DNA of 48,217 nt from a virus (IMGVR_UViG_3300036859_000196:1-48217); one strand, 5' to 3'. Shown: positions 1 through 48,217, counted from the first letter of the stretch. Translations and numbers: made by a program. The notes: generated by a model from the sequence alone, not told the origin.

Positions 1-125
1 TTACTGTGGATTGGGACCGCGACGTGATGGGCTACTCGCCCGACCGCGTCGACGCCCTGGTGTGGGCGATCACCGAACTGATGCTGGCCAACCGCGCCCG
101 CGGCGGCCTTGTGGGGACGTTCTGA
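1..125 (+). CDS. terL: Terminase large subunit, 3' terminal fragment (window-edge copy of 47403..47527)
   Basis: nt 1..127 identical to 47403..47529 and 48091..48217; stop TGA 123-125 overlaps portal ATG 125-127. Confidence 0.6.
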   Translation, partial: TVDWDRDVMGYSPDRVDALVWAITELMLANRARGGLVGTF

Positions 126-1501
126 TGCGCAAGCATGGCTTCATGTTGCGGTTGCGCACCGCCATCACGGCGTTCTGGCTCGCCAAGGCCTCCGCCGTCG
201 GCCCCCTCATCGCGCGCCTCGTCGTCGGCCGCGCCGTCTATCCCGAGCGAGACTACGCTAAGCTCGCGCAGGAGGCCTACCAGCGCAACAGCGTGGCCTC
301 GTCCGCCATCCGCATGATCGCCGAGTCAGTGGCCCAGATCCCATGGTGCATGTACTCCGGCAAGGGCGACAACCGCACAGAGATCGAGGAGCACCCGTTC
401 CTCGACCTGATGCAGTCGCCCAACCCCACGCAGGACTGGCAGTCGCTGATCACCGCACTGATCAGCAACTACAAGATCAGCGGCAACCTCTACTGCGAGC
501 GGACCGAGGAGGCGAAGATCGAGCGCATGGAGCTCTACGCGCACCGTCCCGACCGCATCACCATCGTGCCGGACGAGACCGGCGTGCCGGCGGCGTACAA
601 GTACCGCTGCGGCGGTGCCGAGCGCGACTTCGAGATCGACATCGACAAGCAGACGCGGCCGCTGCTCCACCTCAAGACGTTCAATCCGCTCAACGACTGG
701 TATGGTCAGAGCCCCCTCGATGCGTGCGCGTGGGCCATCGATCTGCACAACGGCTACTCGTCGCACAATCTGGGCCTGTTGCAGAACAGCGGCAGCCCAT
801 CGGGCGCGCTGGTATTCAGGGGTACCACGCAGGAGCCCGGCTCGCTGGACCCCGACCGGGCCGCGATCCTGCTTGCCCAGATCCGCGGCGAGGAACGCGG
901 CTACGACAAGAACGGCTCGCGAATGCTGCTCGACGGCGGCGAGTGGCAGTGGCTGCAGATGGGCCTCGATGCCGACAAGATGCAGTCGATGGAGGGCAAG
1001 AACCAGGCCGCGCGAGAGATAGCCTTCACGCTCGGCGTCCCCCCGATGCTGCTCGGCATTCCCGGTGACAACACCTATTCCAACTACCAGGAAGCGCGGC
1101 AGGCCTTCTACCAGGAGACCGTCATCCCGCTCGCGAGCATGCTGGTGCGTGCGTTCCAGCAGTGGTTCGCCAAGGCCCTCGGCAAGGGCGTGTATCTGGA
1201 GGCCAACATCGACGATCTCGACGCCCTGGCCGCAGCCCGCGCCGAGCAGTGGGACCGCATCGAGAAGTCCGAGCAGCTCACCACCAACGAGAAGCGCGAC
1301 GCCATGGGCTACGAGCCTGTCGACGGCGGCGACGTGCTGTACGTGAGCGCTGGCAAGATCCCGATCGATCAGGCGGTGGACACCTTCGAGGCCGATCAGG
1401 ACCGCGCCGACGAGGCGCTTGCGGCGAAGAAGCCGCCCAAGGTCAAGTCGGGCGGGCCGGTGTTCAAGTCGCCGCCCGTTGTCCATGAGGCAAGCGAATG
1501 A
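125..1501 (+). CDS. Portal protein (HK97-family-like)
   Basis: 458-aa ORF directly after terL; portal-like size and position; ATG 125 inside longer TTG-initiated ORF 11..1501. Confidence 0.8.
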   Translation: MRKHGFMLRLRTAITAFWLAKASAVGPLIARLVVGRAVYPERDYAKLAQEAYQRNSVASSAIRMIAESVAQIPWCMYSGKGDNRTEIEEHPFLDLMQSPNPTQDWQSLITALISNYKISGNLYCERTEEAKIERMELYAHRPDRITIVPDETGVPAAYKYRCGGAERDFEIDIDKQTRPLLHLKTFNPLNDWYGQSPLDACAWAIDLHNGYSSHNLGLLQNSGSPSGALVFRGTTQEPGSLDPDRAAILLAQIRGEERGYDKNGSRMLLDGGEWQWLQMGLDADKMQSMEGKNQAAREIAFTLGVPPMLLGIPGDNTYSNYQEARQAFYQETVIPLASMLVRAFQQWFAKALGKGVYLEANIDDLDALAAARAEQWDRIEKSEQLTTNEKRDAMGYEPVDGGDVLYVSAGKIPIDQAVDTFEADQDRADEALAAKKPPKVKSGGPVFKSPPVVHEASE

Positions 1502-1879: not shown

Positions 1880-3166
1880 ATGGTTCTCCCCCGGCTTGCC
1901 CCCCGCCAGCGCATGGAGCGGGCGGCCTCGGTGCGCCTGGTCGTTGCCCTGGAGACCGCGCTGGAGCGGAACCTCGCCCGCACCATCGTCGCCATCGGCC
2001 GCAACGCCATGTCACGCTACGTCGCCGGCGGCGATCCTGCCGCCGTTGATGCCGTTGATATGTCAACAATCGGCCGCGTGCTCGCCCCATCGCTCCGCAA
2101 CACGGCGCGGGTGTTCGGCCGCGCCCTCGTATCGAAATCGACAGACATCGGCATCGAGACCAAGGCCTTCGAGGATCTCGATGCCGGCGTCGAGGAGTTC
2201 CTTCGCGCGCACACGGCCGACCGCGTGGTTCAGATCTCCGACGCCCTGAAGCGCATCATCACCAACATCATCCGCGACGGGTTGGAGGCCAACCGCGGCG
2301 TCGAGGAGGTGGCCCAGGCCATCGTCGAGGCCACGTCCGGCACCATGGCCATGGCCAGAGCCCGGCGCATCGCCCGCACCGAGACGCACATGGCGGCCAA
2401 TGCCGGCCAGCTCGCCGCCGCCCGCGCATCGCCGCTGCAATGGCGTAAGGAGTGGCTCGCCACCGAGGACCAGCGCACGCGCGAGGACCACGCCGAGGCC
2501 AACGGGCAGACGGTCGACCTTGACGAGCCGTTCATCGTCGGCGGCGAGGAGATGATGATGCCGGGCGATCCGAATGCGCCGCCCGAGCAGACCATAAATT
2601 GTCGGTGTGCAGTTCTTTACAGCCCGATCGCCGCGGTGCAGCGCCCCGATGATGATGAAGCCGGCGGCGTCGAGCTCAACGACCTGCTCACCGATCCCGA
2701 CCTGTGGCGCGCGTTCTTCCAGCAGTTGGAGGAGCGCAACGCCCTGCCGGCCGACGTCGTGCTCTACGCCACCGGCGAGGCGTGCGGCCTGCCGCAATTC
2801 GCGTCCGCCGATGACATCGAGATAGGGAGTGAACTCGTCACCCCGCGCTCAGCGAGCATGAACCCCATCTTGGTCAATGCCGGCGCGGGGCTGCCCGATA
2901 CTTTCCCGCTCTACGGACGCCCGGTGGTCGTGAAGATCGCCGCGCCGGCCGGCACGCCGGCGGAGAGCGGCGCCACGATCGCCATGGAGGTGAAGCTCCG
3001 TGAGGACGTGCGCATCGTCGTCACCGCCGTGACCGAAGAGCGCTGGGGCGAGGCGCAGGACGAGGCCGGCGTCGAACGCGACCGTCCGCGTGCCCGCTAC
3101 CGCCATCAACGCATGCCCGCGAGGCGAGGCATCACATTGGTTGAAGCAGAGGTTCAGACGAAATGA
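1880..3166 (+). CDS. Head morphogenesis protein (Mu gpF / SPP1 gp7-like)
   Basis: Motifs ARTETHMAANAGQ, TEDQRTREDHAEANGQTV, INCRCAV typical of Phage_Mu_F domain. Confidence 0.7.
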   Translation: MVLPRLAPRQRMERAASVRLVVALETALERNLARTIVAIGRNAMSRYVAGGDPAAVDAVDMSTIGRVLAPSLRNTARVFGRALVSKSTDIGIETKAFEDLDAGVEEFLRAHTADRVVQISDALKRIITNIIRDGLEANRGVEEVAQAIVEATSGTMAMARARRIARTETHMAANAGQLAAARASPLQWRKEWLATEDQRTREDHAEANGQTVDLDEPFIVGGEEMMMPGDPNAPPEQTINCRCAVLYSPIAAVQRPDDDEAGGVELNDLLTDPDLWRAFFQQLEERNALPADVVLYATGEACGLPQFASADDIEIGSELVTPRSASMNPILVNAGAGLPDTFPLYGRPVVVKIAAPAGTPAESGATIAMEVKLREDVRIVVTAVTEERWGEAQDEAGVERDRPRARYRHQRMPARRGITLVEAEVQTK

Positions 3167-3867
3167 CCAAGCCGCTCACCCGAGCCGAGCTGGAGCACAA
3201 GGCCGTCAGGCTCGAATTGAAGTCGCTGGACGAGGCCGGCATCTTCGAGGGCTACGCCAGCGTCTTCGGTAACGAGGATCTCGGCGCCGACATTGTCGCC
3301 AAGGGCGCATTCGCCAACTGCCTTCGCCAGCGCGGCGTGCGCGGCGTCAAGATGCTGCACGAGCACGACTGTCAGAAGCCCATCGGGCGCTGGGTCGATC
3401 TCATGGAGGACAGCCACGGACTGCTCGCCAAGGGCAAGCTCAACCTCAATCTCGCGAACGGCCGCGAGGTCTACGAGATGCTCAAGGATGAGATGCTTGA
3501 CGGACTCAGCATCGGCTTCCGGGTTGTCAAGGCAACATCCGCACGCGGAAACGAGTCCGTGCGGACACTCGAAGAGGTCGATCTCAGAGAAATTTCAACA
3601 GTCCTCTTCCCAATGAACGAAATGGCTGTTATAGGCTCGGTCAAGGGTATTCACCCGCCGGACAGCAGCGAATTCGTTCGCGAGTTCGAGCGGTGGCTCA
3701 TGCAGGACGCTGGGCTTACCCGCACGAAAGCCCGCCAAATCCTTGGCGGGTACAAGACCCTCAGAGCCATGCCGGACGCTGGCGACGAGGTGGCAATGCC
3801 ACCTGGCGTCGTTTGGTCGTCCCTTGAGGACGGTCTGCGACGCCTCAGCGACGCAGCTAGCCAATAG
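3163..3867 (+). CDS. Prohead protease (HK97 gp4-like)
   Basis: N-terminal FEGYASVFGNEDLGADIVAKGAF resembles HK97 prohead protease family; sits upstream of capsid gene. Confidence 0.75.
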   Translation: MTKPLTRAELEHKAVRLELKSLDEAGIFEGYASVFGNEDLGADIVAKGAFANCLRQRGVRGVKMLHEHDCQKPIGRWVDLMEDSHGLLAKGKLNLNLANGREVYEMLKDEMLDGLSIGFRVVKATSARGNESVRTLEEVDLREISTVLFPMNEMAVIGSVKGIHPPDSSEFVREFERWLMQDAGLTRTKARQILGGYKTLRAMPDAGDEVAMPPGVVWSSLEDGLRRLSDAASQ

Positions 3868-3879
3868 GGGTGTCCAACA

Positions 3880-5226
3880 ATGCCTGATGGCGCAATCCCA
3901 ACCGAAGTGAAGGCCCTCTTCGACGACCTGCAGAAGACGCTCCTCGCCAACCGCACGAAGGCCGAGGAGTTGGAGAAGCAGGTCAAGAAGACCGGCGAAG
4001 ACGCTGTGACGAAGGCGGAGCTCAAGAAGACCGACGACGCCTTCGAGGCCCTCAAGACGAAGATCACCGACGAGATCAACGCGCTTCACAAGAAGGCGTC
4101 CCGTCCCGTCGTGGCGCAGGTCACCGACGCCAAGTCCGCGGCGCTGGAGACCAAGGCTAATGCCGAGTTCGGCCGCTGGATCACGCCCGCCGGACATGCG
4201 GTGGACGTGACCAAGGCCGGCGCGGCGCGCATTGAGTATTCCAAGGCCTTCGAGACCTACCTCCGCAAGGGCAAGGACGGGCTGAGCGACCTCGAAGCGA
4301 AGGCGCTGTCCGTCGGCAGTGCACCCGACGGCGGCTTCTTCGTCGAGCCGTTCCGCAGCCAGCAGATCATCGACAAGCTCTACGAGACGAGCGCCATGCG
4401 CGCGATCGCCTCGGTGATCTCCATCACCTCGAAGTCGGTGGAGTATCCCATCGACCGCGATGAAGCGACCACCGGCTGGGTCGGCGAGCAGTCCTCGCGC
4501 CCGGAGACCAACACGCCGCAGGTCGGCATGCTGGAGATCCCCGTGCACGAGCTCTACGCGCTGCCCAAAGCGACGCAGAACCTTCTCGACGACGCCGGCT
4601 TCAACGTCCAGTCCTGGCTCGATATGAAGGTGGCTGACGAGATGGGCCGCGAGGAGAACAAGCAGTTCGTCCTCGGCAACGGGGTCAAGCAGCCCAAGGG
4701 CTTCACGACCTACACGACCGCGGCGACGGCCGATGCCTCCCGAGCCTTCGGGACGCTGGAGCGCGTCAACACTGGCCAAAACGGCGCATTCAAGACGCTG
4801 GCCGCCGGCCCGCCTATCGTCAACCCGGCGGACGACCTGCTGGACCTGATCTACAAGTTCAAGTCCGGCTATCGCTCGCGTCTGCGCTGGGGCGGCACCA
4901 AGCTCACCCTGGGCGCGGTCCGCAAGTTCAAGGACCTCCAGGGCAACTACATATATGACGCCCGCCTAGGCGCCAACGGCATCATCGACACGGTGTTCGG
5001 CTATCCGTGGGACGAGCTCGCCGACATGGCGGACTACACCACGACCGGCGCGCTCGGCATCGCGCTCGCCGACTGGAAGCGCGGCTACCAGATCGTCGAC
5101 CGCCAGGGCATCCGCCAACTGCGCGATCCCTACACGTCGAAGGGCTACGTGCTGTTCTACACGACCAAGCGTGTCGGCGGCGGCGTGCTCGACAGCGACG
5201 CGATCAAGTTCATTCAGTTCAGCTGA
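3880..5226 (+). CDS. Major capsid protein (HK97 fold)
   Basis: 448 aa, N-terminal coiled-coil delta-like domain then capsid-like body; follows protease. Confidence 0.8.
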   Translation: MPDGAIPTEVKALFDDLQKTLLANRTKAEELEKQVKKTGEDAVTKAELKKTDDAFEALKTKITDEINALHKKASRPVVAQVTDAKSAALETKANAEFGRWITPAGHAVDVTKAGAARIEYSKAFETYLRKGKDGLSDLEAKALSVGSAPDGGFFVEPFRSQQIIDKLYETSAMRAIASVISITSKSVEYPIDRDEATTGWVGEQSSRPETNTPQVGMLEIPVHELYALPKATQNLLDDAGFNVQSWLDMKVADEMGREENKQFVLGNGVKQPKGFTTYTTAATADASRAFGTLERVNTGQNGAFKTLAAGPPIVNPADDLLDLIYKFKSGYRSRLRWGGTKLTLGAVRKFKDLQGNYIYDARLGANGIIDTVFGYPWDELADMADYTTTGALGIALADWKRGYQIVDRQGIRQLRDPYTSKGYVLFYTTKRVGGGVLDSDAIKFIQFS

Positions 5227-6489: not shown

Positions 6490-6844
6490 CGAACTTTCCA
6501 GGCTCCGGCAGTTCATTCTGCCGAAGAGCATCCCGGTGGTCGGGGCGGCGTACGACAAGGCGTTGGAGCGGATACAACTGCGCCACCGGCCGCTTGCCCC
6601 CGGAAAGCGGCGCGCGTGCTGGACGGCCGACATGGTGGCGAGGCTCAAGGCGTCCTGGGATCGCCACGGCAACCCGTACCGCGTCGCTCGCGAACTCGGC
6701 ATCACCGAGAAGGCGGCCAAGGTTGCATATCGCAAGTTTATCGAGAATGGCGCCGCGCCGCGCCAGACGCTCCAGGACGGCCGCTCAGTGGCTGGGGGCC
6801 CTACTAGCGGCCCGGTCCTGGACCCCCTGAAGCGCGCGGCGTGA
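6392..6844 (+). CDS. Hypothetical protein with HTH-like segment
   Basis: ATG 6392 with GGAG 6 nt upstream, inside ORF 6215..6844; segment PYRVARELGITEKAAKVAYRKF. Confidence 0.35.
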   Translation: MTPQAALTTILKRLTRLANRGDRADLDAFMESDELSRLRQFILPKSIPVVGAAYDKALERIQLRHRPLAPGKRRACWTADMVARLKASWDRHGNPYRVARELGITEKAAKVAYRKFIENGAAPRQTLQDGRSVAGGPTSGPVLDPLKRAA

Positions 6845-6853
6845 GGCGTTCCC

Positions 6854-7501
6854 ATGGGCCCCTCCCGCGGCAGCCTCGAACTGGTGACCGCCCCGGCAAC
6901 GGAGCCGGCCACGATTGCAGAGGCAAAGGCGCACGCCCGCATCGAGACTTCGGCCGACGATGCGCTGCTCGGCGCCTACATCACGGGGGCGCGCGAGCTG
7001 GTCGAGCGCACCACCGGCCGGGCGCTTATCACGCAGACCTGGAAGCTGACCCTCGACTGCTGGCCCGGATCGCGGGACGACGACTGGTGGGACGGCGTTC
7101 GGGAACTGCCGATCAGCTACGGCGAGGGCACCCACGTCGAGATCCGCAAGGCGCCGTTCCTGGCCATAACGTCGGTCGTGACGCTCGACGAGAGCGACAC
7201 GCCTACCACGTGGGCGTCGAGCAACTACTACGTCGACAAGCGCCACGGCTTCGGCCGGCTGATCAAGAAGCAGGGTGTGGTGTGGCCGACCATCATCGGC
7301 CGGGACTTCGGGGCGATCGTCATCGCCTTCACGGCAGGGTACGGAGCGAACGCGAGCGACGTGCCGATGGCGCTGCGGCAGTCGGTGAAGGATATCGTGG
7401 CCCACTGGTATGAGAACCGCGAGGCGGCCGCAGAGGTGAACTTCAACGAGGCGCCGATGAAGACGCGGGCGCTGCTGCAGCAATACACGGTGGCGAGGTG
7501 A
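6854..7501 (+). CDS. Head-tail connector protein (gp6-like, GTA-type)
   Basis: N-terminal ATIAEAKAHARIETSADDALLGAYITGARELVERTTGRAL typical of phage gp6 connector family. Confidence 0.65.
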   Translation: MGPSRGSLELVTAPATEPATIAEAKAHARIETSADDALLGAYITGARELVERTTGRALITQTWKLTLDCWPGSRDDDWWDGVRELPISYGEGTHVEIRKAPFLAITSVVTLDESDTPTTWASSNYYVDKRHGFGRLIKKQGVVWPTIIGRDFGAIVIAFTAGYGANASDVPMALRQSVKDIVAHWYENREAAAEVNFNEAPMKTRALLQQYTVAR

Positions 7502-7537
7502 GACGGATGAGCACGGAATGGAAGACCGATATGAGCG

Positions 7538-7600
7538 ATGAGGCCGACGGTCTACGCCGTCTCGAAGACCGCACCGGGGGCGCATAGCGCATACCGCTAA
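7538..7600 (+). CDS. 20-codon micro-ORF MRPTVYAVSKTAPGAHSAYR ending in the PGAH-x-[VA]-YR tail
   Basis: Hand translation; stop TAA 7598-7600 overlaps ATG 7600 of next gene; tail matches four larger ORFs. Confidence 0.35.
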   Translation: MRPTVYAVSKTAPGAHSAYR

Positions 7601-7971
7601 TGCCCAAGCACGCCGGCGAGCTCCGCGACCGCATCCGCATCGACCAGGACCTCGGCGCGACGGTGAACGTCATCGGCGACGCGGTGCCGGATTGGCAGCC
7701 GCTGATTACGGGCACCGACGACGGAATGATCTGGGCCAACGTCGCCCCGATGAGCGCGGGCGAGCAGTGGCGGCGTCTACAGATGAATGCGGAGGCGAAC
7801 TGGAAGGTCACGATCCGCCACCGCACGGACATAACCCCCAGGATGCGCGTCGTCTTCGGCCCGCGCGTCATGGAGATACGCGGCATCGTCAACCCCGACA
7901 TGAAGCGCCGGTTCCTCGAATTGGCCTGCGAAGAATTGGTAGCCGCCGATATAGTGGGGGCCGTGCCGTGA
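7600..7971 (+). CDS. Head closure / head-tail joining protein
   Basis: 123 aa; size, position and sequence pattern consistent with Phage_H_T_join family. Confidence 0.65.
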   Translation: MPKHAGELRDRIRIDQDLGATVNVIGDAVPDWQPLITGTDDGMIWANVAPMSAGEQWRRLQMNAEANWKVTIRHRTDITPRMRVVFGPRVMEIRGIVNPDMKRRFLELACEELVAADIVGAVP

Positions 7972-8465
7972 GGATCGCCGTCACCACGCCGCCGGACCTC
8001 GATTTCTCCGCCCTCGAAGCGGAGGCCCGCGCCGCCGTGGACCAGGCGCTCAAGGCCGGCGTGCAGATGATCGCCAACGATGCGAAGCGCGCGGTGGCAA
8101 GCGGCCCCAAGACGGGCAATATCTATACGCACTATTTCCGTACCGGCCCCAACGGCGGCGTGTTCCCGGTCGAGAAGCGCGGCGTGCCGCACCAGGCCTC
8201 CGCCCCGGGCGAGGCGCCGGCAACCGACACGGGGCGGCTGGTCAACTCCATCGTCGCCGATGCGGAGTGGACCGGCGACAGCATCACCGGCTACGTGCGT
8301 GCCGATGTGGAGTACGCGCGCTGGCTCGAATACGGCACGCGCAAGATCCTGCCGCGCCCGTTCCTGATCCCGGCGATCGAGCGCAACCGGCAGCGCATCG
8401 TCGACCTGATCCGGGTCGCATTCGCAACGGCCGCGGGGCAGTTCGCCCGCAAGGTGAGGAGATAG
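7968..8465 (+). CDS. Tail component protein, HK97 gp10 family
   Basis: GTG 7968; C-terminal EYARWLEYGTRKILPRPFLIPAIERN resembles HK97 gp10 family. Confidence 0.65.
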   Translation: MRIAVTTPPDLDFSALEAEARAAVDQALKAGVQMIANDAKRAVASGPKTGNIYTHYFRTGPNGGVFPVEKRGVPHQASAPGEAPATDTGRLVNSIVADAEWTGDSITGYVRADVEYARWLEYGTRKILPRPFLIPAIERNRQRIVDLIRVAFATAAGQFARKVRR

Positions 8466-8470
8466 GCCCC

Positions 8471-8764
8471 ATGGACGAGAAGCGAGCAGCCGACGACGCA
8501 GTCCGGTACCGCGAGGCGCTGTCGATGATCGAGCAGATGCAGCCGATGGCCGACAAGCTCTACGACTGGCGCATCGACCCCAACGGCCGGTTGCGGGACG
8601 CGCTCGACGTATTCCAGCGCACCTGCAGTGACATCATCGAGGCGCTATCCACCGACGCTCTGGCAGAGGGCTTGAACGATTTGTCGCGGGACGGAGGGCG
8701 CATGTTCTCCGACCGCCGCCCGCTCGATGCCAAGGCAAGGGGCGCGCATAGCGTCTACCGCTGA
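8471..8764 (+). CDS. Small acidic helical protein, C-terminal ...ARGAHSVYR tail family
   Basis: ATG 8471 with GAGGAG upstream inside ORF 8267..8764; shared C-terminal motif. Confidence 0.6.
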   Translation: MDEKRAADDAVRYREALSMIEQMQPMADKLYDWRIDPNGRLRDALDVFQRTCSDIIEALSTDALAEGLNDLSRDGGRMFSDRRPLDAKARGAHSVYR

Positions 8765-8767
8765 TTG

Positions 8768-9178
8768 ATGGCCGACCGCTCCGTCGAACTGTTCGCAGCC
8801 CTCCGCACCGCCCTCGCGGGCGACGCGGCGCTGGCGACAGTGCTCGGCGGATCGGGGCGCGTGCACAGCGCCATGACGCCCGCTGGTGCGCCGCCGCCCT
8901 ACGTGGTGATCGGCGATGAGACGGCCGCGGACTATGGCGCCAGCGACGGAGACAGCCAGGAGCACACCGTCACGATGCACGTGTGGACCGAGGAGCCCGG
9001 CAAGCTGCAGTGCCTGCAGGCGATGTCCGCGGTGCGCGCGGCACTGCACGACGTAGATCTGTCCCTCTCCGGCGGGCTGCTGGTCAACCTGCGTTGCGAG
9101 TTCAAGGAGACGTTCCGCGACCCGGACGGCGTTTCCCAGCACGGCGTCATGCGCTTCCGGGCCGTAACGACGGGGTGA
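8768..9178 (+). CDS. Tail completion-like protein (DUF3168-like)
   Basis: 137 aa; segment PPPYVVIGDETAADYG...HTVTMHVWTEEPG; position as in GTA clusters. Confidence 0.55.
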   Translation: MADRSVELFAALRTALAGDAALATVLGGSGRVHSAMTPAGAPPPYVVIGDETAADYGASDGDSQEHTVTMHVWTEEPGKLQCLQAMSAVRAALHDVDLSLSGGLLVNLRCEFKETFRDPDGVSQHGVMRFRAVTTG

Positions 9179-9182
9179 CATC

Positions 9183-9473
9183 ATGGGAAGGCGACACGCT
9201 TACATCGAGGCCATAAGCGAAAAATTGGGCGAGTTGGAGACACAGCTCCATGATCTCGCGGATGCAGCGGCGCGCGTGCGCGATGAGTCAATGCAGATGA
9301 GCGTCGCGCAGAGCATGAATGAGTTCCTTGCTGGGCTGTCGCGCTCTCAGAGCGCGCTACTCAGCGCAAGACGTGCTCTCGACACGATCGAAGATCCGAC
9401 CATATGGGACCCGACGAAGTCTGCACCCGGCGTCGAGGGCAGAATTCCCGGCGCGCACCGCGCCTATCGCTAG
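9183..9473 (+). CDS. Small helical protein, C-terminal ...IPGAHRAYR tail family
   Basis: 96-aa ORF; shared C-terminal motif. Confidence 0.6.
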   Translation: MGRRHAYIEAISEKLGELETQLHDLADAAARVRDESMQMSVAQSMNEFLAGLSRSQSALLSARRALDTIEDPTIWDPTKSAPGVEGRIPGAHRAYR

Positions 9474-9488
9474 CAAGGAGCACTCCCC

Positions 9489-9902
9489 ATGGCCAATCTC
9501 TCCCAGACCGCGGCAAACGTTGCAGCCGCCGCCGGCGCCAAGATCGACACCACGAAGATCGCCGGCGCCACGCTCACCGCGGGCATGCCGGTCTACATCG
9601 ACGCCGCCGACGGCAAGGCCAAGATTGCCGACAACAATGTATCGGCTGCGCTCGCCGCAGTCTACGGCATCGCCCTCAACGGCGCCTCCGATGGGCAGCC
9701 GGTGGCGATCTGCACCGAGGGCGATGTGAACCTCGGCGCCACCCTCGCGATCGGCGAGATCTATGCGCTCTCCGCCACCGCGGGCGCGATCTGCCCGGAC
9801 GCGGATGTCGTGTCCACCAATTTTGTCAGCCACCTCGGCACGGCACGAACGCCGGCGCTCATGCAGCTGAAGATCAACAATACCGGCGTCGCGCACGCCT
9901 GA
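9489..9902 (+). CDS. Hypothetical structural protein (DUF2190-like)
   Basis: AAGGAG RBS 8 nt upstream; Gly/Ala/Val-rich 137-aa pattern. Confidence 0.4.
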   Translation: MANLSQTAANVAAAAGAKIDTTKIAGATLTAGMPVYIDAADGKAKIADNNVSAALAAVYGIALNGASDGQPVAICTEGDVNLGATLAIGEIYALSATAGAICPDADVVSTNFVSHLGTARTPALMQLKINNTGVAHA

Positions 9903-9939
9903 CGTATTGACAACGTATATACGCTGAGGAGCACACGAC

Positions 9940-10347
9940 ATGGCCAGGCAGAAGGGGAGCGACGTACTCCTCAAGCTCGACACTACTGGGTCCAGCAACT
10001 ACGTCACCATCGGAGGCATTCAGAACGCGCGCATCACGCTCGACCGCGGCGACGCCGATGTCACCAACCAGGGCTCACCGTCCAAGCACCGCGAGCTTCT
10101 GGAGGCCGCGGGCATCTTTAAGATGAGCGTGTCCGGCGACGGCGTGTTCGACAGCGCCGCCCCGCAGGACACCCTGCGCTCCATCATGATGCAGGGCCTG
10201 CACCGCAACTGGCAGGTCATCGTGCCGGGCCAGGGCACCTACTCCGGCGCCTTCATGGTGACCAAGCTGGAGTTCGGCGGGCCGCACGAGAAGGAGGTCA
10301 CCATGCAGATCTCCCTCGAAAGCGCCGGGCTGATCAGCTTCGTCTGA
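9940..10347 (+). CDS. Major tail protein (TP901-1/GTA type)
   Basis: 135 aa; GAGGAG RBS; size and position typical of GTA-like major tail protein. Confidence 0.65.
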   Translation: MARQKGSDVLLKLDTTGSSNYVTIGGIQNARITLDRGDADVTNQGSPSKHRELLEAAGIFKMSVSGDGVFDSAAPQDTLRSIMMQGLHRNWQVIVPGQGTYSGAFMVTKLEFGGPHEKEVTMQISLESAGLISFV

Positions 10348-10356
10348 GGGGGAACC

Positions 10357-10710
10357 ATGGACAACGACCTGCGCGGCAGCGCCACCATCACGATCGACGG
10401 GGAGGACTATGAGGTCGGGCAGAGCATCGGCGCGCTCGCCCGCCTCGCCAAGGCCTTCGGGGTCAAGACGTTCGACGACGTGAACCGCCGCGTCAACGAG
10501 ATGAACCTTGAGGACATGCCAGTCGTGCTGCAGTGCCTGCTGCGCGGCAACGGCCATAAGGTCTCCGACGAGGCCATCGAGCGGCTGGCGCCAGGCAGCT
10601 ATTTCGCCATGCTGCGCATGCTGTACGACTCCGCGTTCCCGGCGTCCAAGCCGAACGGCGCCGCGGAGGGCGCCACTGCAAACCCTCCCCAGACATCGCT
10701 GAGTTCCTGA
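10357..10710 (+). CDS. Tail assembly chaperone-like protein
   Basis: 117 aa between major tail and tape measure genes. Confidence 0.5.
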   Translation: MDNDLRGSATITIDGEDYEVGQSIGALARLAKAFGVKTFDDVNRRVNEMNLEDMPVVLQCLLRGNGHKVSDEAIERLAPGSYFAMLRMLYDSAFPASKPNGAAEGATANPPQTSLSS

Positions 10711-10718
10711 CCGAGGCG

Positions 10719-10910
10719 ATGCAGTTCGGATTGGGCATCCTCCACCTTCCCCCCGACGCTTTCTGGCGCATGACGCTCCGCGAGTACGACGCCGCGCTCG
10801 CCGGCCATAACCGATTTCACGGCGGCGACACCAAGCCCGACATCGACGTGCCCGGCATGCGGTCCTTCATTGATGAGATGAAGGCCAAGCATCCCGACAA
10901 CCCGGCCTGA
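10719..10910 (+). CDS. Small tail assembly protein
   Basis: 63-aa ORF immediately upstream of tape measure gene. Confidence 0.4.
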   Translation: MQFGLGILHLPPDAFWRMTLREYDAALAGHNRFHGGDTKPDIDVPGMRSFIDEMKAKHPDNPA

Positions 10911-10918
10911 GCACCCCA

Positions 10919-12778
10919 ATGCCCGACGCCAATCTCAATTTCCAGATCACCGGCGACGCATCGCAGTTCCGCGCGGCGCTGAACCAGGCGCAGACGGCAA
11001 GCCGGCAGACCGCGGAGGGCATGACGACCGCCTTCACGCGCGCGACCGAGAAGGTCGCCACGTCGGTGCGCGATCTCGGCCGCGGCATAGGGGGCGTCTT
11101 CGAGCAGGTCGCCCGCAACATCGGCCAGGCCGCGACGCAGTGGGGCGATCAATGGGCGGGCACGGCGCAGGGCGCTTTCAACTCGGTGTCGTCTGCCGCG
11201 CGCGGAATGATTTCCGCCGTGGCGGGGATCTTCGGCGGCGCTACCGCGCGCATGGCGGACATCGCACTCAACCTGTTTGCGCTGCCGTTCGAGAACGCCC
11301 TGGACCACGCGTCACGCGCCGCTGCGCGGTTCCTGCGAGACATCCCATCGGCATCCACCGCAAGCGCCGGGACGGGCATGAGCTACTTCGAGGCCAACCT
11401 TGCGGTGCTGCGCCGGGCCGTCAGATCGATGATGGGTCTGTCCGGCGGCCTCGGCGACAGGCCCCAAGCGTTCGAATTTGAGCAGGCCATGGCCGGGATC
11501 AATCCCGCGGGCACTAGCCAGTCGCCAATGGAGCGAATGGACCCGCTGCGGATGACGGAACTGGGCCGGACTTTCGGCCCAGCCGTTGCCAACCTCACGG
11601 GCCAGGCGCAGTTGGAGGAGCGCGCTGCCGCAGTGGTCGGCCAGACCGCGGGCGCCATTGCGAGGGCGCGCGCCGAATTGGAGCTGTGGCGCGCGCTGTG
11701 GCTTCAGGGCGACCGGGAGCCGAACGCCGATCAGGTTGCAGCCATGGAGGCAATCCTCAACCGGATCGCCAATGCTGCCGACGCGCGCCAATCGAACCAG
11801 GACAGACAGCAAGTGCTCGCGCAGATCCGGCGCGAGATCGAGATGGAGCGTGAGCGGGCGGACGCGATCAATCTGACCGCAGGCGCTCGTGCGCGGGAAC
11901 GCTCCGAGGCCATAGTCCGCGGCTTCCGCCAAGGCCGGGGCGGCCGAGGCGCGAACCTTCTCGAAGATGACGAGGTGCAGGCTGCGCTCGCGCGCAGGGA
12001 AGCCGCCGCCGACGCCGCCGCGCACACGCGCCTTGCGGCCGAAATGGGCCAGGCGGTGCAATTTCAGACCATGGCATTCGACCGCCAGCGCCAATCGATC
12101 GGGGCCACCGCCGGCGAGATGGCGCGGCTTCTGTTCGTGGAGCAGCAGCACCAGGCGGCGATCCGTGCTGGCGTGCTTCTGTCGGATGATGAAGCAGAGG
12201 CGATCAACCGCAACGCCGAAGCAATCGCTCAAAGGACGCAGGCGCTGACGCTCGCGAACGAGCAGTTCAGGCGGTTGTTGGACACCGGCCGCGTGGTTGC
12301 GAGCAGCCTGGAGAGCGCATTCGCCAAGTTCATGGACGGCACCAAGCAGAGCTGGCGCTCGCTCGTGAACGACCTCTCCAAGGACATGGCCAAGCTCGCC
12401 TTCCGGCAGCTGTTCATCAACACCCTGTTCGGCCAGGGCGCCGGCTCGTCCAACCCGCTGGGGCTATTCGGTCAGGTGTTCGGCGGCTTCCGCGCCGAGG
12501 GCGGCTCGGTGTCGGCCGGCACGTCCTACATGGTCGGCGAGCGCGGCCCGGAACTGTTCCGCCCGCGCCAGTCCGGCACCATCGTGCCCAACAGCGCCAT
12601 GCGCGGCGGCGACCCCGCAGTCATCAACATGCGCATCGACCTCTCCGGCGCGAACGGCGACGAGACCATCGCCCGCATCTCCGGCCAAGCGGCGCGCATG
12701 GCGGCGATGGCGGCGGTGCAGGAGAGCAACGCGGCGTTCCCCGCGCGACAGCGCCGGCTGCAGATGCTGGGGACGTGA
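10919..12778 (+). CDS. Tail tape measure protein
   Basis: 619 aa, Ala/Gln-rich helical; C-terminal FRAEGGSVSAGTSYMVGERGPELFRP typical of tape measure C-terminus. Confidence 0.8.
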   Translation: MPDANLNFQITGDASQFRAALNQAQTASRQTAEGMTTAFTRATEKVATSVRDLGRGIGGVFEQVARNIGQAATQWGDQWAGTAQGAFNSVSSAARGMISAVAGIFGGATARMADIALNLFALPFENALDHASRAAARFLRDIPSASTASAGTGMSYFEANLAVLRRAVRSMMGLSGGLGDRPQAFEFEQAMAGINPAGTSQSPMERMDPLRMTELGRTFGPAVANLTGQAQLEERAAAVVGQTAGAIARARAELELWRALWLQGDREPNADQVAAMEAILNRIANAADARQSNQDRQQVLAQIRREIEMERERADAINLTAGARARERSEAIVRGFRQGRGGRGANLLEDDEVQAALARREAAADAAAHTRLAAEMGQAVQFQTMAFDRQRQSIGATAGEMARLLFVEQQHQAAIRAGVLLSDDEAEAINRNAEAIAQRTQALTLANEQFRRLLDTGRVVASSLESAFAKFMDGTKQSWRSLVNDLSKDMAKLAFRQLFINTLFGQGAGSSNPLGLFGQVFGGFRAEGGSVSAGTSYMVGERGPELFRPRQSGTIVPNSAMRGGDPAVINMRIDLSGANGDETIARISGQAARMAAMAAVQESNAAFPARQRRLQMLGT

Positions 12779-12780
12779 CA

Positions 12781-13212
12781 ATGACCGACGCGTTGCGACT
12801 GGAGCGCAAGACTTGGGTCGAAGCTCTGATGTTGATCGCCGGCGGCGCTGCCATGATCACGGCATATGCTGTCTGGGTTGCCGGTAAAATGGCCGTCACC
12901 GAGTTCGGGAAGCGCAAGATCGTTGAGCTTTTCCTGACGGAGGAGGAGCGCATTGAGCGCGAGATTGCTGAGATCGACCTCGATGTTCGGCGCAATGAGC
13001 GCTACCTGGAACGCGGGGCGGTAGATGCACATAGGGACGACGCGCGCGACATCTTGCTCGAGCGCAACGAAGGGCTTCTTGAGCGGCGTGCCGTGCTTGA
13101 TGACAAGCTCCGCGAGCTCCGTCGCGTCATGAGCGAATTTGACGATGTGCCAACCGCAGGCGAGGACGAGAAGTCCGCCCGTGTCCCCGGCGCGCACATG
13201 GTCTACCGATGA
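12781..13212 (+). CDS. Membrane-anchored coiled-coil protein, C-terminal ...VPGAHMVYR tail family
   Basis: N-terminal hydrophobic segment; stop overlaps next ATG (ATGA); shared C-terminal motif. Confidence 0.6.
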   Translation: MTDALRLERKTWVEALMLIAGGAAMITAYAVWVAGKMAVTEFGKRKIVELFLTEEERIEREIAEIDLDVRRNERYLERGAVDAHRDDARDILLERNEGLLERRAVLDDKLRELRRVMSEFDDVPTAGEDEKSARVPGAHMVYR

Positions 13213-14213
13213 ATTTCTACCCCTCGATCATCTACTGGCCGCGCATTCTGCAGCGCGACCGCCGCTGGACGTGGGAGCTGGCCGCCCGCACGCTCTCCGG
13301 TGGCCGCTCCATGTCCGGCCTGATGCCGGTCGCGCGCCTCGACGGCGGCGGCATGTGGATGGCCTCGCTCGGCGATGTCCAGGTGTCCACCCCGGACCAG
13401 GTCAGGGCGTGGCGGGCCATCGCGGCTCGGCTCGACAGCGGGGCGACGCCGATCGCCGTGGAGGCGCGGGACGAACGCCACTCGCCATGGCCGCTCGTGG
13501 GCGGCGTGCCGCTGGTCGCCGAATACGAGGCCACCAACTCGGACGGCAGCACACCGTCCGATCAGACGAACTACGTCTCCGACGTGATCCAAGCCGAGGT
13601 CAAGACGGCCGCGGCGCTCAGGGCGACAACTCTGGATCTGATCCTGGAGAACGCCCAGGCGCTTCGCGGCGGCGAATACTTCAGCATACAGCACGACACG
13701 TTCAGTCACCGGCTCTACCGCCTCGGCAAGGTGACAAAGATCGACACGAGCGACCACGCAGTCAGCGCGATGACGGTGACCATCGCCTCGCCTGGCGTGT
13801 TCACCGTGACGGCGCACGGCTTCGCGGCCAGGCAGCGGGTCTACTTCCGCACCTCCGGCGCGCTGCCGACGGGGCTGTCGCCGGAAACGCTCTACTTCGT
13901 GTTGTCCACAGATTTGTCGGCCAACACCTTCAAGGCCTCCGCGACCGAGGAAGGGACCGCGATCAACACGTCGGGCAGCCAGTCCGGCACGCACCGCGTG
14001 GTGACTGGTGGCTTCCCGACCGTGACAATCCGCCCGCCGCTGCGCGAGGACACTACCGCCGGCACGCGTGTCGAGTTCGACAACCCCACGTGTATCATGC
14101 GGCTCGCGGCGCCTGATGCCATGGATCTGGTACTCGACCGCCGCATCTACGGCCAAGCCGATGTCAAGTTCGTCGAGGACTTCCCGCCGTTCGATCTGGT
14201 GGAGGACGCATGA
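13209..14213 (+). CDS. Putative distal tail protein
   Basis: 334-aa ORF after tape measure; assignment by position only. Confidence 0.45.
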   Translation: MNFYPSIIYWPRILQRDRRWTWELAARTLSGGRSMSGLMPVARLDGGGMWMASLGDVQVSTPDQVRAWRAIAARLDSGATPIAVEARDERHSPWPLVGGVPLVAEYEATNSDGSTPSDQTNYVSDVIQAEVKTAAALRATTLDLILENAQALRGGEYFSIQHDTFSHRLYRLGKVTKIDTSDHAVSAMTVTIASPGVFTVTAHGFAARQRVYFRTSGALPTGLSPETLYFVLSTDLSANTFKASATEEGTAINTSGSQSGTHRVVTGGFPTVTIRPPLREDTTAGTRVEFDNPTCIMRLAAPDAMDLVLDRRIYGQADVKFVEDFPPFDLVEDA

Positions 14214-14818
14214 CCTCCCCCGCCTTCGACGCCGCGCTTGCATCGGGCAATCCCCGCGTCGGCATCTTCTTCCGCCTCGGCGTCATCATGGAGGACGGCG
14301 AACCGTTCCGCATGTGGCTCGGCATCGGCGATTGCGAGGCGGGCATAGATGCGGAGGACGGAGCCGGCGAGATCTATAGGGGCATGGGCGAGATGCTCAA
14401 CGTCCCCGCATTTCAACAGTTGATCAACGGCGTCGCGGAACGCGTGACGTTCACGCTGTCGGGCGTGCCGCCGCGCGCTGTCGAGCTGGCCACCGGCGAA
14501 GCCGCCGAGGTCAAGGGCGTCGCCCTCAACGTCGGCCTCGGCGTGTTCGATCAGGATTGGCAGCTTGTCGACGAGCCGGTGTGGCTGCGGCGGTACATCG
14601 TCGATTTTCTGACCGTCGCGCGCCAGCAGTCCGGCACCGAGGAGGCGGTCTATACCGTCTCGCTGTCGACGCGATCGATCTTCACGGGCCGCCGCCGGCC
14701 GGGGCTGTCGTTCTTCACCGACGAGGACCAGCAGCGCCGCTCGCCTGGGGATCGGTTCTGCGAGCACGCGCGGCGCTATGCACAGCTGGAGGCCAAGGCG
14801 TGGCCCAAGACCACCTAG
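14210..14818 (+). CDS. Putative tail hub protein (GTA gp13-like)
   Basis: 202 aa; synteny with GTA tail module. Confidence 0.4.
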   Translation: MTSPAFDAALASGNPRVGIFFRLGVIMEDGEPFRMWLGIGDCEAGIDAEDGAGEIYRGMGEMLNVPAFQQLINGVAERVTFTLSGVPPRAVELATGEAAEVKGVALNVGLGVFDQDWQLVDEPVWLRRYIVDFLTVARQQSGTEEAVYTVSLSTRSIFTGRRRPGLSFFTDEDQQRRSPGDRFCEHARRYAQLEAKAWPKTT

Positions 14819-23218: not shown

Positions 23219-23247
23219 TTGACGTACTGACCTTGAGCGTCTACATT
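23219..23247 (+). promoter_or_regulatory. Sigma70-like promoter inside the left inverted repeat
   Basis: TTGACG, 17-nt spacer, TACATT upstream of transposase start. Confidence 0.4.
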
Positions 23248-23275
23248 GGCGGTCATGAGATCAGGGGATGCCGCC

Positions 23276-24202: not shown

Positions 24203-24500
24203 GCAGAAAGATCGGCGGCGACGCTGCCGATAGTCCCGCTTATCGGCTGCCACCGAATCGTGTCATGAGCCCCATTGCGGCGTTTCTGAGCCAAACGACT
24301 GCGGGAACAATGGGGCTGAGCACGACGGGGATCGTAGCTACACGGACACCTAGATAGGACGCAAAGACAAGCCTTGCGAGGCGGTCTTTGGCGTCCTGCT
24401 CGTCGTGGGCGCGGATCTCGAACTGCCAGACCTTGCCACCGTGGTTGTAGCGGAACAGGTGCGTCTGCATATCGTCAACAACACCAAGAGGTGTGAACAC

Positions 24501-27157: not shown

Positions 27158-27405
27158 ACATCCGCGAGGCCATGCGTGACATCAATGCCGGCCCCATCGG
27201 TGGCGAGGGCGGCGACCTGGAACGCACCACGCGATCAGCGAGGCGCATCTGCAGCGCTATGTGACGGAAGCCACCTTCAAGTGGAACCACCGCATCGCGC
27301 TTGGCGTAGACGATACTGCTCGTGCCAAGGCCGCTCTCAAGTCCATTGGCGGCAAGCGCTTGACGTACGGGACAACTCGTGGAGCCCAGAACGCCTAAGC
27401 AGCGG
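27158..27405 (+). pseudogene. Internally deleted remnant of the IS1595 transposase gene
   Basis: Near-identical to 23618-23691 joined to 24035-24207 (343-bp internal deletion); no inverted repeats nearby. Confidence 0.7.
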
Positions 27406-30985: not shown

Positions 30986-31035
30986 TGGCGGTCCCGGCAG
31001 GGCTTGAACCCGCAACCTCCGCGTTCGAAGCGCGG
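30986..31035 (-). other. attP core: 3' ~50-nt fragment of a tRNA-Arg(UCG)-like gene
   Basis: Minus strand reads anticodon stem-loop CCGCG-CTTCGAA-CGCGG, T-arm GCGGG-TTCAAGC-CCTGC, acceptor 3' strand, CCA; no D-arm or 5' acceptor strand. Confidence 0.55.
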
Positions 31036-46245: not shown

Positions 46246-47527
46246 CCTGAGCGGCGACGAGCTCGCCCACATCGAGCACGACTGGCGCTTCTGGGCTCGC
46301 GACGAGCAACTCGCACCGCCGGGCCTGTGGCGCATATGGCTGCTGCTGGCCGGACGCGGCTTCGGCAAGACCCGCGTCGGTGCCGAGTGGTGCCACGAAC
46401 GCGCCGCCGAGTCCGTCTGCCGCATCGCCATCGTCGGCGCCACGATGGACGACGCCCGCAAGATCTGCGTCGATGGCGAGTCCGGCATCATGGCGTGCGC
46501 CAAGCCGTGGTTCCGCCCGACCTTCGAGCCGTCGAAGAACGGCGGCACGGTGACGTGGCCCAACGGCTCGCTGGCCGAACTCTACTCGGGCGAGAAGCCG
46601 GACGGCCTGCGCGGGCCGCAGTTCCATGCGGCGTGGCTCGACGAGCTGCTGAAGTGGCGCCGCATGCAGGCGGCCTGGGACATGCTCAGGTTCGCGCTGC
46701 GGCTTGGCACTCACCCGCGCACCGTGATAACCACCACGCCGACGCCAGCGAAGCTGATCAAGGACCTGGTCAATGACAAGCGCACGGGGGCGGACGGTTT
46801 GCCCATGGTGCGCGTAGTGCGCGGCTCGACCTACGCCAACGCCGCCAACCTATCGGCCGACGCCCTCGACGAACTGCGCACCAAGTACGAGGGCACCCGC
46901 CTCGGCCGGCAGGAGCTGTTCGGCGAGATCCTCGAAGACCGCCCCGGCGCGCTCTGGACATATGCCAACATCGACGAGCACCGCATCAATGACCCGGAAC
47001 AGGTCCCCAAGCTTGAGCGCACCATCGTCGCCATCGATCCTCCCGTCACTTCGGGCGAGGATGCCGACGAGTGCGGCATCGTCGCCGCCGGGCGGGGGCC
47101 GCACTCGCACGCCTACGTGCTCGGCGATGCGTCCGAGCGGGGCCTCTCGCCTAAGCAATGGGCTCAGAAGGCGCTTCGGCTTTACCACGACACCGGTGCG
47201 GGCCTGATCGTCGCCGAGGCCAACAACGGCGGCGAGATGATCAAGCACGTGATCAACACCGAGGCGCCGGAGGTCAAGGTCAAACTGGTGCACGCTAGCA
47301 AGGGCAAGGTCACCCGCGCCGAGCCGGTGTCGAGCCTCTACGAGCAAGGCCGAGTGCACCACGTCGGCACCTTCAAGGCGCTCGAAGATCAGCAAACTGA
47401 CTTTACTGTGGATTGGGACCGCGACGTGATGGGCTACTCGCCCGACCGCGTCGACGCCCTGGTGTGGGCGATCACCGAACTGATGCTGGCCAACCGCGCC
47501 CGCGGCGGCCTTGTGGGGACGTTCTGA
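46181..47527 (+). CDS. terL: Terminase large subunit (GTA-like family)
   Basis: N-terminal LSGDELAHIEHDWRFWARDEQLAPPGLWRIWLLLAGRGFGKTR (Walker A-like); GTG start overlapping terS. Confidence 0.85.
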   Translation: MELRASSIASLPPSKRQAFLDSLSGDELAHIEHDWRFWARDEQLAPPGLWRIWLLLAGRGFGKTRVGAEWCHERAAESVCRIAIVGATMDDARKICVDGESGIMACAKPWFRPTFEPSKNGGTVTWPNGSLAELYSGEKPDGLRGPQFHAAWLDELLKWRRMQAAWDMLRFALRLGTHPRTVITTTPTPAKLIKDLVNDKRTGADGLPMVRVVRGSTYANAANLSADALDELRTKYEGTRLGRQELFGEILEDRPGALWTYANIDEHRINDPEQVPKLERTIVAIDPPVTSGEDADECGIVAAGRGPHSHAYVLGDASERGLSPKQWAQKALRLYHDTGAGLIVAEANNGGEMIKHVINTEAPEVKVKLVHASKGKVTRAEPVSSLYEQGRVHHVGTFKALEDQQTDFTVDWDRDVMGYSPDRVDALVWAITELMLANRARGGLVGTF

Positions 47528-47529
47528 TG
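47357..47529 (+). repeat. 173-bp direct repeat, copy B (3' end of terL)
   Basis: Identical to 48045..48217; its last 127 nt equal window 1..127. Confidence 0.85.
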
Positions 47530-47946
47530 GGTGACCTACTGGCAAGAGCGAGAGACCTTGCGCAGCGCGCCAGGAGCATTGAGGCGGATGCGCAGCGCCT
47601 TGACGACGCAATGGCCGGATCTCCGACGAGAAGTGAGGTCGAGCGCGCAGTCGACGAAGCTCAGCGGCTTAAGCCCGCCGTCTCGGCTCTCGCCAGGGGA
47701 CAGCACGCCCTCATCGATGAGGCCGGCCGCCTCGATGACGTCGATGACGCACCCGGCATCGAGGATGCCGTTGGCGCACTATTCGACGATCTGGAGTTCG
47801 ACGCCGAGCGCATCCTCTGGCTCATCAACAGCGTCATCTATGATGGTGGGAAGTACCTATCCACCCATACGCACGACACGTTTAACGATTGGCTAGACGC
47901 GAACAAATCGGCCCCTCGCCCCGGCGCTCACGCCGTCTACCGCTAA
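47527..47946 (+). CDS. Small acidic helical protein, C-terminal ...RPGAHAVYR tail family
   Basis: ATG 47527 overlaps terL stop (TGATG); shared C-terminal motif. Confidence 0.6.
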   Translation: MGDLLARARDLAQRARSIEADAQRLDDAMAGSPTRSEVERAVDEAQRLKPAVSALARGQHALIDEAGRLDDVDDAPGIEDAVGALFDDLEFDAERILWLINSVIYDGGKYLSTHTHDTFNDWLDANKSAPRPGAHAVYR

Positions 47947-47967: not shown

Positions 47968-48044
47968 ATGAGCGCGCACGACTACTACAGCGACCTGCGC
48001 GGCAAAGGCGAAGTCGTCCATGTGCGCGAAAGGGTCGAGAGCGT
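47968..48044 (+). pseudogene. Truncated 5' copy of the MSAHDYYS gene (homologous to start of 1498..1875)
   Basis: First ~26 nt near-identical to 1498-1523; frame then runs into the terL 3' repeat. Confidence 0.4.
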
Positions 48045-48217
48045 CACCACGTCGGCACCTTCAAGGCGCTCGAAGATCAGCAAACTGACTTTACTGTGGA
48101 TTGGGACCGCGACGTGATGGGCTACTCGCCCGACCGCGTCGACGCCCTGGTGTGGGCGATCACCGAACTGATGCTGGCCAACCGCGCCCGCGGCGGCCTT
48201 GTGGGGACGTTCTGATG
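48045..48217 (+). repeat. 173-bp direct repeat, copy C (terL 3' end remnant)
   Basis: Identical to 47357..47529; continues as window 1..127. Confidence 0.85.

Follow-up and report, generated by a model that had tools for sequence, protein, structure and literature searches.

A virus contig of 48,217 bp (IMGVR_UViG_3300036859_000196:1-48217; this whole stretch, at its full length, is hereafter called the window) encodes five open reading frames (ORFs) that end in the same short C-terminal peptide, G-A-H-x-[V/A]-Y-R followed directly by a stop codon. The window has a GC content of 65% and derives from a temperate siphophage of the HK97/gene transfer agent (GTA)-like type. We find that this tail is a real, peptide-selected, and previously uncatalogued feature, and that it belongs to mobile, translationally coupled gene cassettes of a narrow clade of uncultured phages. 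Tentatively, we favor reading the tail as a short linear motif for docking, through which exchangeable accessory proteins, acidic helical hairpins, would be tethered to a single shared partner, most likely in the assembling particle.

A regular-expression search of the six-frame translation for GAH..YR returned exactly five matches in the window, all on the + strand and each immediately followed by a stop codon, with the tails ending at 7600, 8764, 9473, 13212, and 47946; the five shared C termini of the original prediction are thus all recovered. Residue frequencies give a chance expectation of 0.0008 for GAH..YR-stop, and 300 second-order Markov simulations of the window produced no match. 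The four longer tailed ORFs have a coding-type composition (GC fraction of 0.69-0.86 at third codon positions, GC3, and 0.40-0.49 at second positions, GC2), and three of the four carry gene calls in an independent Logan assembly (L001). The tail extends beyond the P-G-A-H-x-[V/A]-Y-R initially proposed, which proved too short: ≈13-20 residues are conserved, among them, in many tails, DRRP[LI]..K.

Relatives of the phage were collected through homologues of the ORF at 12781-13212 (contigs L010, L011, L012, and L064) and through a DNA pattern that matched two IMG/VR contigs (L003/L009 and L004/L008); their portal proteins are 75 to 79% identical. The window and these related metagenomic phage contigs together hold ≈21 tailed ORFs, with the consensus [SA]D[RD]RP[LI]xxKxx(P)-G-A-[HY]-x-[VAIL]-Y-[RK]-stop and one variant tail that ends GAHSTYNGR. 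There are five in the window, eight within 12 kb of L011, four at three junctions in the L064/L008/L009 lineage, and two each in L010 and L012. Every tail sits between terL and the distal tail genes. Over the 34 kb of the window devoted to early functions, lysogeny, and lysis, there are no tails, and the same is true of the early regions of L010, L012, and a further relative, L065.

That selection acts on the peptide had been proposed from synonymous codon differences and unlike stop codons, and an alignment of 18 tails confirms it. The invariant alanine is encoded by GCA, GCC, GCG, and GCT, arginine by CGC, CGA, and AGG, histidine by CAT and CAC, and tyrosine by TAC and TAT, and all three stop codons are used. 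Information content amounts to 1.6-2.5 bits at codon positions 1 and 2 versus 0.2-1.1 bits at third positions. As DNA repeats, the tails (23-31 nt, 78-81% identity) are no stronger than chance repeats nearby; folding at the tails revealed no common structure (z from -0.4 to +1.0), and there is no Rfam match at the tails. Region 6800-14300 contains no promoter-like site and a single terminator-like site, which lies on the opposite strand. Across ≈115 kb of clade DNA (≈230,000 six-frame codons), the relaxed motif [GS]A[HY]x[VAILY]Y occurs at ≈21 C termini, directly after the initiator methionine in four ORFs, and once internally. Conservation of the shared 3' sequence in other reading frames of relatives had been named as an observation that would speak for a nucleotide-level element; in this DNA, neither the opposite strand nor any further frame contains a case of the relaxed motif. 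The relaxed motif is also absent from the outgroups L015 and L067, with no occurrence in 120,000 outgroup codons. Because of the synonymous codon variation, the mixed stops, the in-frame-only motif, and the lack of DNA or RNA structure, the alignment shows that purifying selection, as judged at the sequence level, acts on the translated peptide and not on the DNA. In three tails, the terminal AGG-TGA lies 5-7 nt upstream of the following ATG and doubles as an AGGTGA of Shine-Dalgarno type, which therefore imposes a second constraint on those codons. The sole internal match in the clade lies in the transmembrane (TM)-coiled-coil protein at L009 6138/L064 1921, where a 7-residue insertion, VIVGAHG, generates an internal GAHGVYQ beside the membrane segment.

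The N-terminal parts, or bodies, of the tailed ORFs were thought to be unrelated, and they fall into at least 10 families that neither BLAST clustering nor hhalign links (hhalign probability between families 0.8%); common ancestry of the bodies was considered and ruled out by hhalign. Neither bodies nor tails have a significant match in Pfam, PHROG, or PDB, where only subthreshold coiled-coil noise was seen. The one exception is phrog_839 (E = 5e-4, function not assigned), which matches the body of L012 356-733. With that reservation, the view that no family with this tail had been described holds. Among individual members, the ORF at 12781-13212 has just 4 relatives among 1.84 billion representative proteins, and the ORF at 47527-47946 is an ORFan whose sole match among 5.8 billion proteins is itself.

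Beyond this clade, we found no tails in two more distant relatives, L015 (major capsid protein 63% identical) and GenBank MW202613, the nearest GenBank phage (portal 40% identical), and the latter is without any shared-terminus family. A DNA pattern scan of 185,579 genomes matched 48 loci and yielded no tailed prophage. Most of these loci encode PGAH..YRW, with TGG in place of a stop, largely in Methylobacterium (L020, L023, L028, L029, L033, L041, L043, L049, L052, L053, L055, and L058, none of which ends in a stop); the peptide probably lies within the product of a single conserved host gene and has no relationship to the tails of the phages. The remaining loci are isolated chance matches, as are the IMG/VR matches L002, L005, and L006. 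A tail-only profile (44-aa version) run against 5.8 billion proteins returned 11 word-sharing candidates, none at E ≤ 10, which shows just the rarity of the tail. Single-protein locus searches with the tail completion protein gp17 and the major capsid protein found no match in IMG/VR or GTDB genomes, and an MCP-alignment scan (MCP, major capsid protein) of JGI metagenomes found three loci, all without tails.

The prediction that the tailed ORFs are insertions into the HK97/GTA-like gene order is borne out by relatives that lack single cassettes at exactly the stop/start junction. At the junction after gp17, L011 reads GGC TAG CAAGGAGCACTCCCC ATG, and the window reads GGG TGA CATC ATG[ORF 9183-9473]CGC TAG CAAGGAGCACTCCCC ATG, a codon-exact insertion. 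L011 has no counterpart of this ORF; since its gp17 TAG runs straight into the same CAAGGAGCACTCCCCATG, the window copy is a precise insertion. The ORF at 8471-8764 (GC3 0.86; called as a gene in L001) has an orthologue at 13681-14016 of L011. In region 6800-14300, the gaps between cassettes and neighboring genes are 0-7 nt. Placement of the tail at or just before the next start, also part of the original prediction, is true of most copies, which end 0-21 nt away; across the clade, the distance ranges from -4 to +318 nt, with 82 nt in L064 and 318 nt in L010.

Of the five predicted members, the four longer ones stand, and the one at 7538-7600 is, by sequence comparison, a decayed relic and not an intact fifth functional member. 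Its intact counterpart is a 90-aa tailed ORF at 12221-12493 of L011. Relative to L011 12185-12515, the aligned window copy has lost ≈180 nt and carries a 2-nt frameshift that separates the N terminus from the tail; it has no gene call in L001. The remnant in the other frame, at 7507-7587, resembles the N terminus of the L011 12848 ORF (MSTERKTDGDAADYERR).

The cassettes also move. The TM-coiled-coil cassette lies before the distal tail protein (DTP) gene in the window, after it in L012 (protein 73% identical), between portal and MuF in L009/L064, before the protease in L011, and, fused to a domain like that of the 8471-8764 ORF, between MuF and protease in L010. Because the same body and tail occur at five different junctions, the function is expected to act in trans, independently of the neighboring gene. 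In L012, the slot before the DTP gene holds a different tailed ORF with the C terminus KKSFPGAYAIYR and an unrelated body; it has the tail-coding DNA and the TACCGATGA junction in common with the window. L003 and L004 likewise share tail and downstream DNA and differ in their bodies, and between orthologous ORFs the tail-coding DNA hardly differs. In L008, a deletion that preserves the frame leaves 23 N-terminal and 16 tail residues. The L010 fusion (P0004, 502 aa; 10001-11509) naturally joins a long coiled coil, the domain homologous to the 8471-8764 ORF, and the TM-coiled-coil body; it has a single terminal tail, KSAAGAHHLYK, and the internal tail of the 8471-like part is gone. Gain, loss, internal deletion, and movement of cassettes between junctions are thus shown by comparison of these contigs. 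The cassette at 12824 of L011 includes a copy of the connector 3' end (last codons and spacer): GGTGGCGAGGTGAGACG(G)ATGAG at L011 12827-12856 corresponds to L011 12204-12232 and to window 7489-7517, that is, to connector VAR-stop, spacer, and ATG. Owing to this copied connector end, the L011 head completion gene ends in MVAR versus GAVP in the window, and the MVAR end appears, from the alignment, to be the footprint of a cassette duplication that carried flanking codons.

The bodies are acidic (pI 4.2-5.2) and the tails mostly basic. An AlphaFold2 model of the 12781-13212 protein comprises helices at residues 3-77, with the membrane segment, and 87-121, followed by a tail (residues 128-143) with a predicted local distance difference test score (pLDDT) below 50. 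The model of the 8471-8764 protein shows a helical hairpin (residues 2-32 and 40-73, pLDDT ≈90) and 25 C-terminal residues (73-97) with pLDDT below 50. For these two families, the tail is therefore predicted to be terminal and disordered behind a folded acidic helical hairpin, a body that resembles scaffold- or chaperone-like acidic hairpins. A Foldseek search with the TM-coiled-coil model returned generic helical hairpins only (Vipp1/ESCRT-III, E > 0.1), which we did not accept as homology.

A related motif occurs at N termini. Four other cassette ORFs (window 1498, window 47968, L007 2527, and L009 4310), all placed directly after the portal or terL stop, begin with MSA[HY]DYY[SG], which fits the relaxed tail pattern and varies synonymously as the tails do, with the same H/Y alternative. 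Their bodies are mutually unrelated except for the homologous pair window 47968 and L009 4310, the latter a 92-aa ORF between terL and portal. This motif may represent the same peptide usable at either end of a protein, or a tail remnant fused to the next ORF.

How the tail might work is best considered against this background. Of the roles originally raised, a shared docking or virion-incorporation tag is plausible given the models and the distribution of the tails. In the mechanism that we tentatively prefer, a disordered terminal peptide with the core G-A-[HY]-x-[VAIL]-Y-[RK]-COOH, in many cases with DRRP[LI]..K ahead of it, would bind one partner late in infection; we infer both that the tail binds something and what the binder may be. 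Since no copy is found outside the virion operon and the hairpin bodies are scaffold- or chaperone-like, this partner would most likely be in the assembling particle, in the procapsid interior or at the portal/neck, and the tag would act like a capsid-targeting or cargo-loading peptide. The cassettes, placed exactly stop-to-start and translationally coupled, would be shuffled by recombination, with the tail-coding end and the Shine-Dalgarno-stop-start microhomology probably serving as joints for cassette exchange. A docking motif is supported by the disordered terminal peptide, the at least 10 unrelated bodies, the peptide-level selection, the specificity of the motif, and the location in the virion operon, and we count in its favor that the L008 deletion spares the tail and that P0004 keeps only the terminal one. 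Several observations weigh on the other side. One family is anchored in the membrane, which sits uneasily with a place in the capsid interior; among the window's gene products there is no obvious domain for binding peptides (PDZ, TPR, AAA+, or the like); and the prohead protease, a known internal protein, lacks the tag and ends differently (conserved LRRL[NST][DE]A..). The tag is dispensable, since the closely related L007 does without tailed ORFs throughout terL-portal-MuF-protease-MCP, and the family is limited to roughly five related uncultured phages. A bolder form of the docking idea, which we regard as doubtful, is a portable virion-loading system in which the tag, maybe at either terminus, would dock exchangeable small proteins on the procapsid or portal, the docked proteins, once packaged or positioned, would pass to the next host, and the tag DNA would double as a recombination joint.

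Other explanations make different use of the same features. The tail could be a C-terminal degron or a protease-adaptor tether to a host AAA+ protease (Lon or ClpXP), a principle exemplified by the C terminus of SulA for Lon and the C-terminal XB peptide of SspB for ClpX; a disordered, terminal, hydrophobic-aromatic-basic peptide on unrelated proteins, independent of gene neighborhood, would suit such a role, but the tail matches no known degron in sequence, the related N-terminal motif would need to work too, and confinement to the virion operon would be left unexplained, so that we consider a degron unlikely. The original prediction had also raised a regulatory nascent peptide, acting in the ribosomal exit tunnel to tune re-initiation on the next gene. 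Conservation confined to about a tunnel length, the short distances to the next start with three AGG-TGA ends that form a Shine-Dalgarno sequence, and the low copy number of several downstream virion parts would all agree with this. It is nevertheless disfavored, and we hold it to be quite improbable: one and the same cassette is followed by five different genes in the various phages, among them those for DTP, for the protein encoded next after DTP, for MuF, and for the protease; the gaps in L064 and L010 are long; indels shift DRRPL relative to the stop, the GAHSTYNGR variant exists, and the last residue may be lysine; a related motif sits at N termini; the tails have neither RNA structure nor an Rfam match; and the bodies are no mere spacers but conserved proteins with a fold. 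Equally improbable in our estimation is a tail devoid of peptide function, a landing pad or recombination joint: new bodies would be exchanged into non-essential cassettes already in place and would inherit the 3' end because the essential downstream junction must persist. The unrelated bodies joined to the same tail DNA and downstream gene at the DTP junction of the window and L012, the similar pair in L003/L004, the connector end copied into the L011 12824 cassette, and the near-identical tail DNA of orthologous pairs are what such a joint would leave behind. Neutral inheritance cannot explain, however, why the G, A, Y, and R codons of ≈20 copies vary only synonymously, with both CGN and AGG used for arginine, and the weakness of the tails as DNA repeats argues in the same direction. 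A joint mechanism probably contributes to cassette shuffling without being the whole story. As for a DNA or RNA element (a protein-binding site, a structure, or an attC-like site) or a chance repeat, recurrence of the GGCGCGCA core in one orientation throughout could be read that way, but this reading is effectively refuted by the three-base periodicity, the use of all alanine codons and two arginine codon families, the constant in-frame position with a stop after it, the lack of structure, Rfam match, promoter, or terminator at the tails, and the chance expectation given above.

The docking motif that we prefer can be compared with several known systems. Packaged internal proteins carry capsid targeting sequences (CTSs), as in the CTS of T4 IPIII and the N-terminal signal of P1 DarB (PMC9024508). 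The likeness lies in a short terminal peptide that is common or transferable to unrelated accessory cargo, with one assembly partner, in a tailed phage. The T4 and P1 signals are N-terminal, however, and that of T4 is cleaved by the prohead protease, whereas the tag described here is C-terminal in ≈21 ORFs and follows the initiator methionine in four; there is no sequence similarity, one member here is membrane-anchored, and packaging is putative. Encapsulins offer a second parallel in their cargo-loading peptides (CLPs) (PMC8346489, PMC8802124). Here too, a C-terminal peptide predicted to be disordered (pLDDT < 50) is found on diverse proteins beside an HK97-fold shell gene, but the phage is complete and tailed, with portal, terL, tape measure, and tail genes, whereas encapsulin shells are without portal, terminase, and tail, and the candidate cargo genes are interleaved with head, neck, and tail genes. 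The GSL-type CLPs of encapsulins are unlike GAHxVYR. Proteasome activators end in the HbYX motif, hydrophobic-Tyr-X-COOH (PMC12352868, PMC11475706), which [VAIL]-Y-[RK]-stop formally fits in 20 of 21 tails; by chance, 0.72% of bacterial proteins have an HbYX-type tripeptide (PMC11475706). HbYX does not cover the conserved G-A-H and DRRPL parts, and the window proteins include no proteasome-like domain as the 20S receptor for it. A 20S proteasome is not known from Alphaproteobacteria, and none is expected in the likely host. Host assignment to the Alphaproteobacteria is itself likely, given the GcrA and DUF1376 genes in relatives. The ribosome arrest or monitoring peptides SecM, MifM, and TnaC share with the tailed ORFs a variable N-terminal part, sometimes a membrane anchor, and then a conserved C-proximal peptide upstream of another gene; they differ in that the tails have no fixed target gene, no RNA switch, variable spacing, and a related N-terminal motif. 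Like morons and free-standing mobile genes, the cassettes are accessory genes variably present between conserved late genes, but neither a dedicated promoter nor a dedicated terminator accompanies them, they lack a nuclease domain, and they are codon-exact and translationally coupled. Classical morons were ruled out by the absence of promoter-like sites in 6800-14300, where the only terminator-like site is on the opposite strand, and integron attC-type cassettes by the absence of a hairpin at the tails and by the integrase, the only one in the window, being a phage tyrosine integrase in the lysogeny region.

The features of the window are collected in Table 1. Elsewhere, the window has genes for that integrase and for an S24 repressor, together with a GH108 lysin gene and an IS1595 transposase gene. 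The two ends of the contig share 127 bp (1-127 = 48091-48217), which makes the true molecule a circle of ≈48,090 bp. Both copies of the 173-bp repeat end exactly on an ATG, the first on the start codon of the ORF at 47527-47946, which thus forms its final 3 nt; the pair encloses this ORF and the shortened ORF at 47968-48117, and the terminal overlap falls within the repeat. Because the perfect repeats run into this overlap, the context of the 47527-47946 ORF is ambiguous: sequence was duplicated or inserted there very recently, or else the assembly has joined two variants.

Table 1. Coordinates of the tailed ORFs and other features in the window
Feature	Position	Strand	Remarks
Tailed-cassette relic	7538..7600	+	Connector to head completion gene; KTAPGAHSAYR-TAA retained, overlaps ATG of head completion gene; 20-aa mini-ORF
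Tailed cassette, 97 aa	8471..8764	+	Between HK97-gp10-like gene and tail completion gp17; C terminus SDRRPLDAKARGAHSVYR-TGA; tail core 8741-8764
Tailed cassette, 96 aa	9183..9473	+	gp17 to 137-aa gene 9489-9902; C terminus GRIPGAHRAYR-TAG; tail core 9450-9473
Tailed cassette, 143 aa	12781..13212	+	N-terminal TM helix, helical hairpin, tail KSARVPGAHMVYR-TGA; tail core 13189-13212; alternative GTG start at 12775; stop overlaps DTP ATG
Tailed cassette, 139 aa, acidic	47527..47946	+	After terL; C terminus NKSAPRPGAHAVYR-TAA; tail core 47923-47946
N-terminal remnant of decayed cassette, other frame	7507..7587	+	MSTEWKTDMSDEADGLRRLEDRTGGA, then stop
Untailed cassette, 125 aa	1498..1875	+	Between portal and MuF; N terminus MSAHDYYSG
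Shortened ORF	47968..48117	+	N terminus MSAHDYYSD; enters second 173-bp repeat copy
Portal	~125-1501		
MuF-like gene	1880-3166		
S78 prohead protease	3163-3867		
Major capsid protein, HK97-type	3880-5226		Same operon as tailed ORFs
gp6-like connector	6854-7501		
Head completion gene	7600-7971		
HK97-gp10-like gene	7968-8465		
Tail completion gp17	8765-9178		
Conserved 137-aa gene	9489-9902		Downstream of ORF 9183..9473
Major tail gene	9940-10347		
Tail assembly chaperones	10357-10910		
Tape measure	10919-12778		
Distal tail protein	13209-14213		
terL	46181-47527		
173-bp perfect direct repeat, copy 1	47357-47529		terL 3' end and ATG
173-bp direct repeat, copy 2	48045-48217		Last 127 bp = window 1-127; final ATG = portal start

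Outside the virion operon, window 23617-23679 is 100% identical to 27159-27221, and 24023-24206 is 92% identical to 27219-27402; the 3' part of the ORF at 23246-24202 is thus partially duplicated ≈3.2 kb downstream. An IS1595-type transposase, which may or may not correspond to this ORF, was detected in the region. A weak Rfam tRNA match lies at 30989-31047 on the - strand (30.8 bits versus a gathering threshold of 29). In the relative L065, genes for an outer membrane protein beta-barrel and an Acb2/Tad1-hairpin protein (171-1146) lie upstream of the terminase genes; Acb2/Tad1-hairpin is a Pfam family of anti-CBASS/anti-Thoeris nucleotide-sponge proteins, and the beta-barrel gene is present in the window as well.

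The cassettes show, in a clean natural example, how non-essential genes are inserted with codon precision into a late operon of tightly coupled genes and afterwards moved among its junctions. If the tail is a docking tag, it would be a minimal transferable address label, of ≈8-20 residues, for a whole set of unrelated accessory proteins in a temperate siphophage, and it would help to find hidden virion or anti-host cargo proteins and to engineer protein delivery by phages. Should the virion-loading system prove true, the tag would be a C-terminal counterpart of the T4 CTS and, on the side of phages, would parallel the loading of cargo into encapsulins. Whatever the tail does, a terminal regular expression with at least two matches per contig provides a sharp search key with which metagenomes can be screened for these phages and for their pool of accessory genes.

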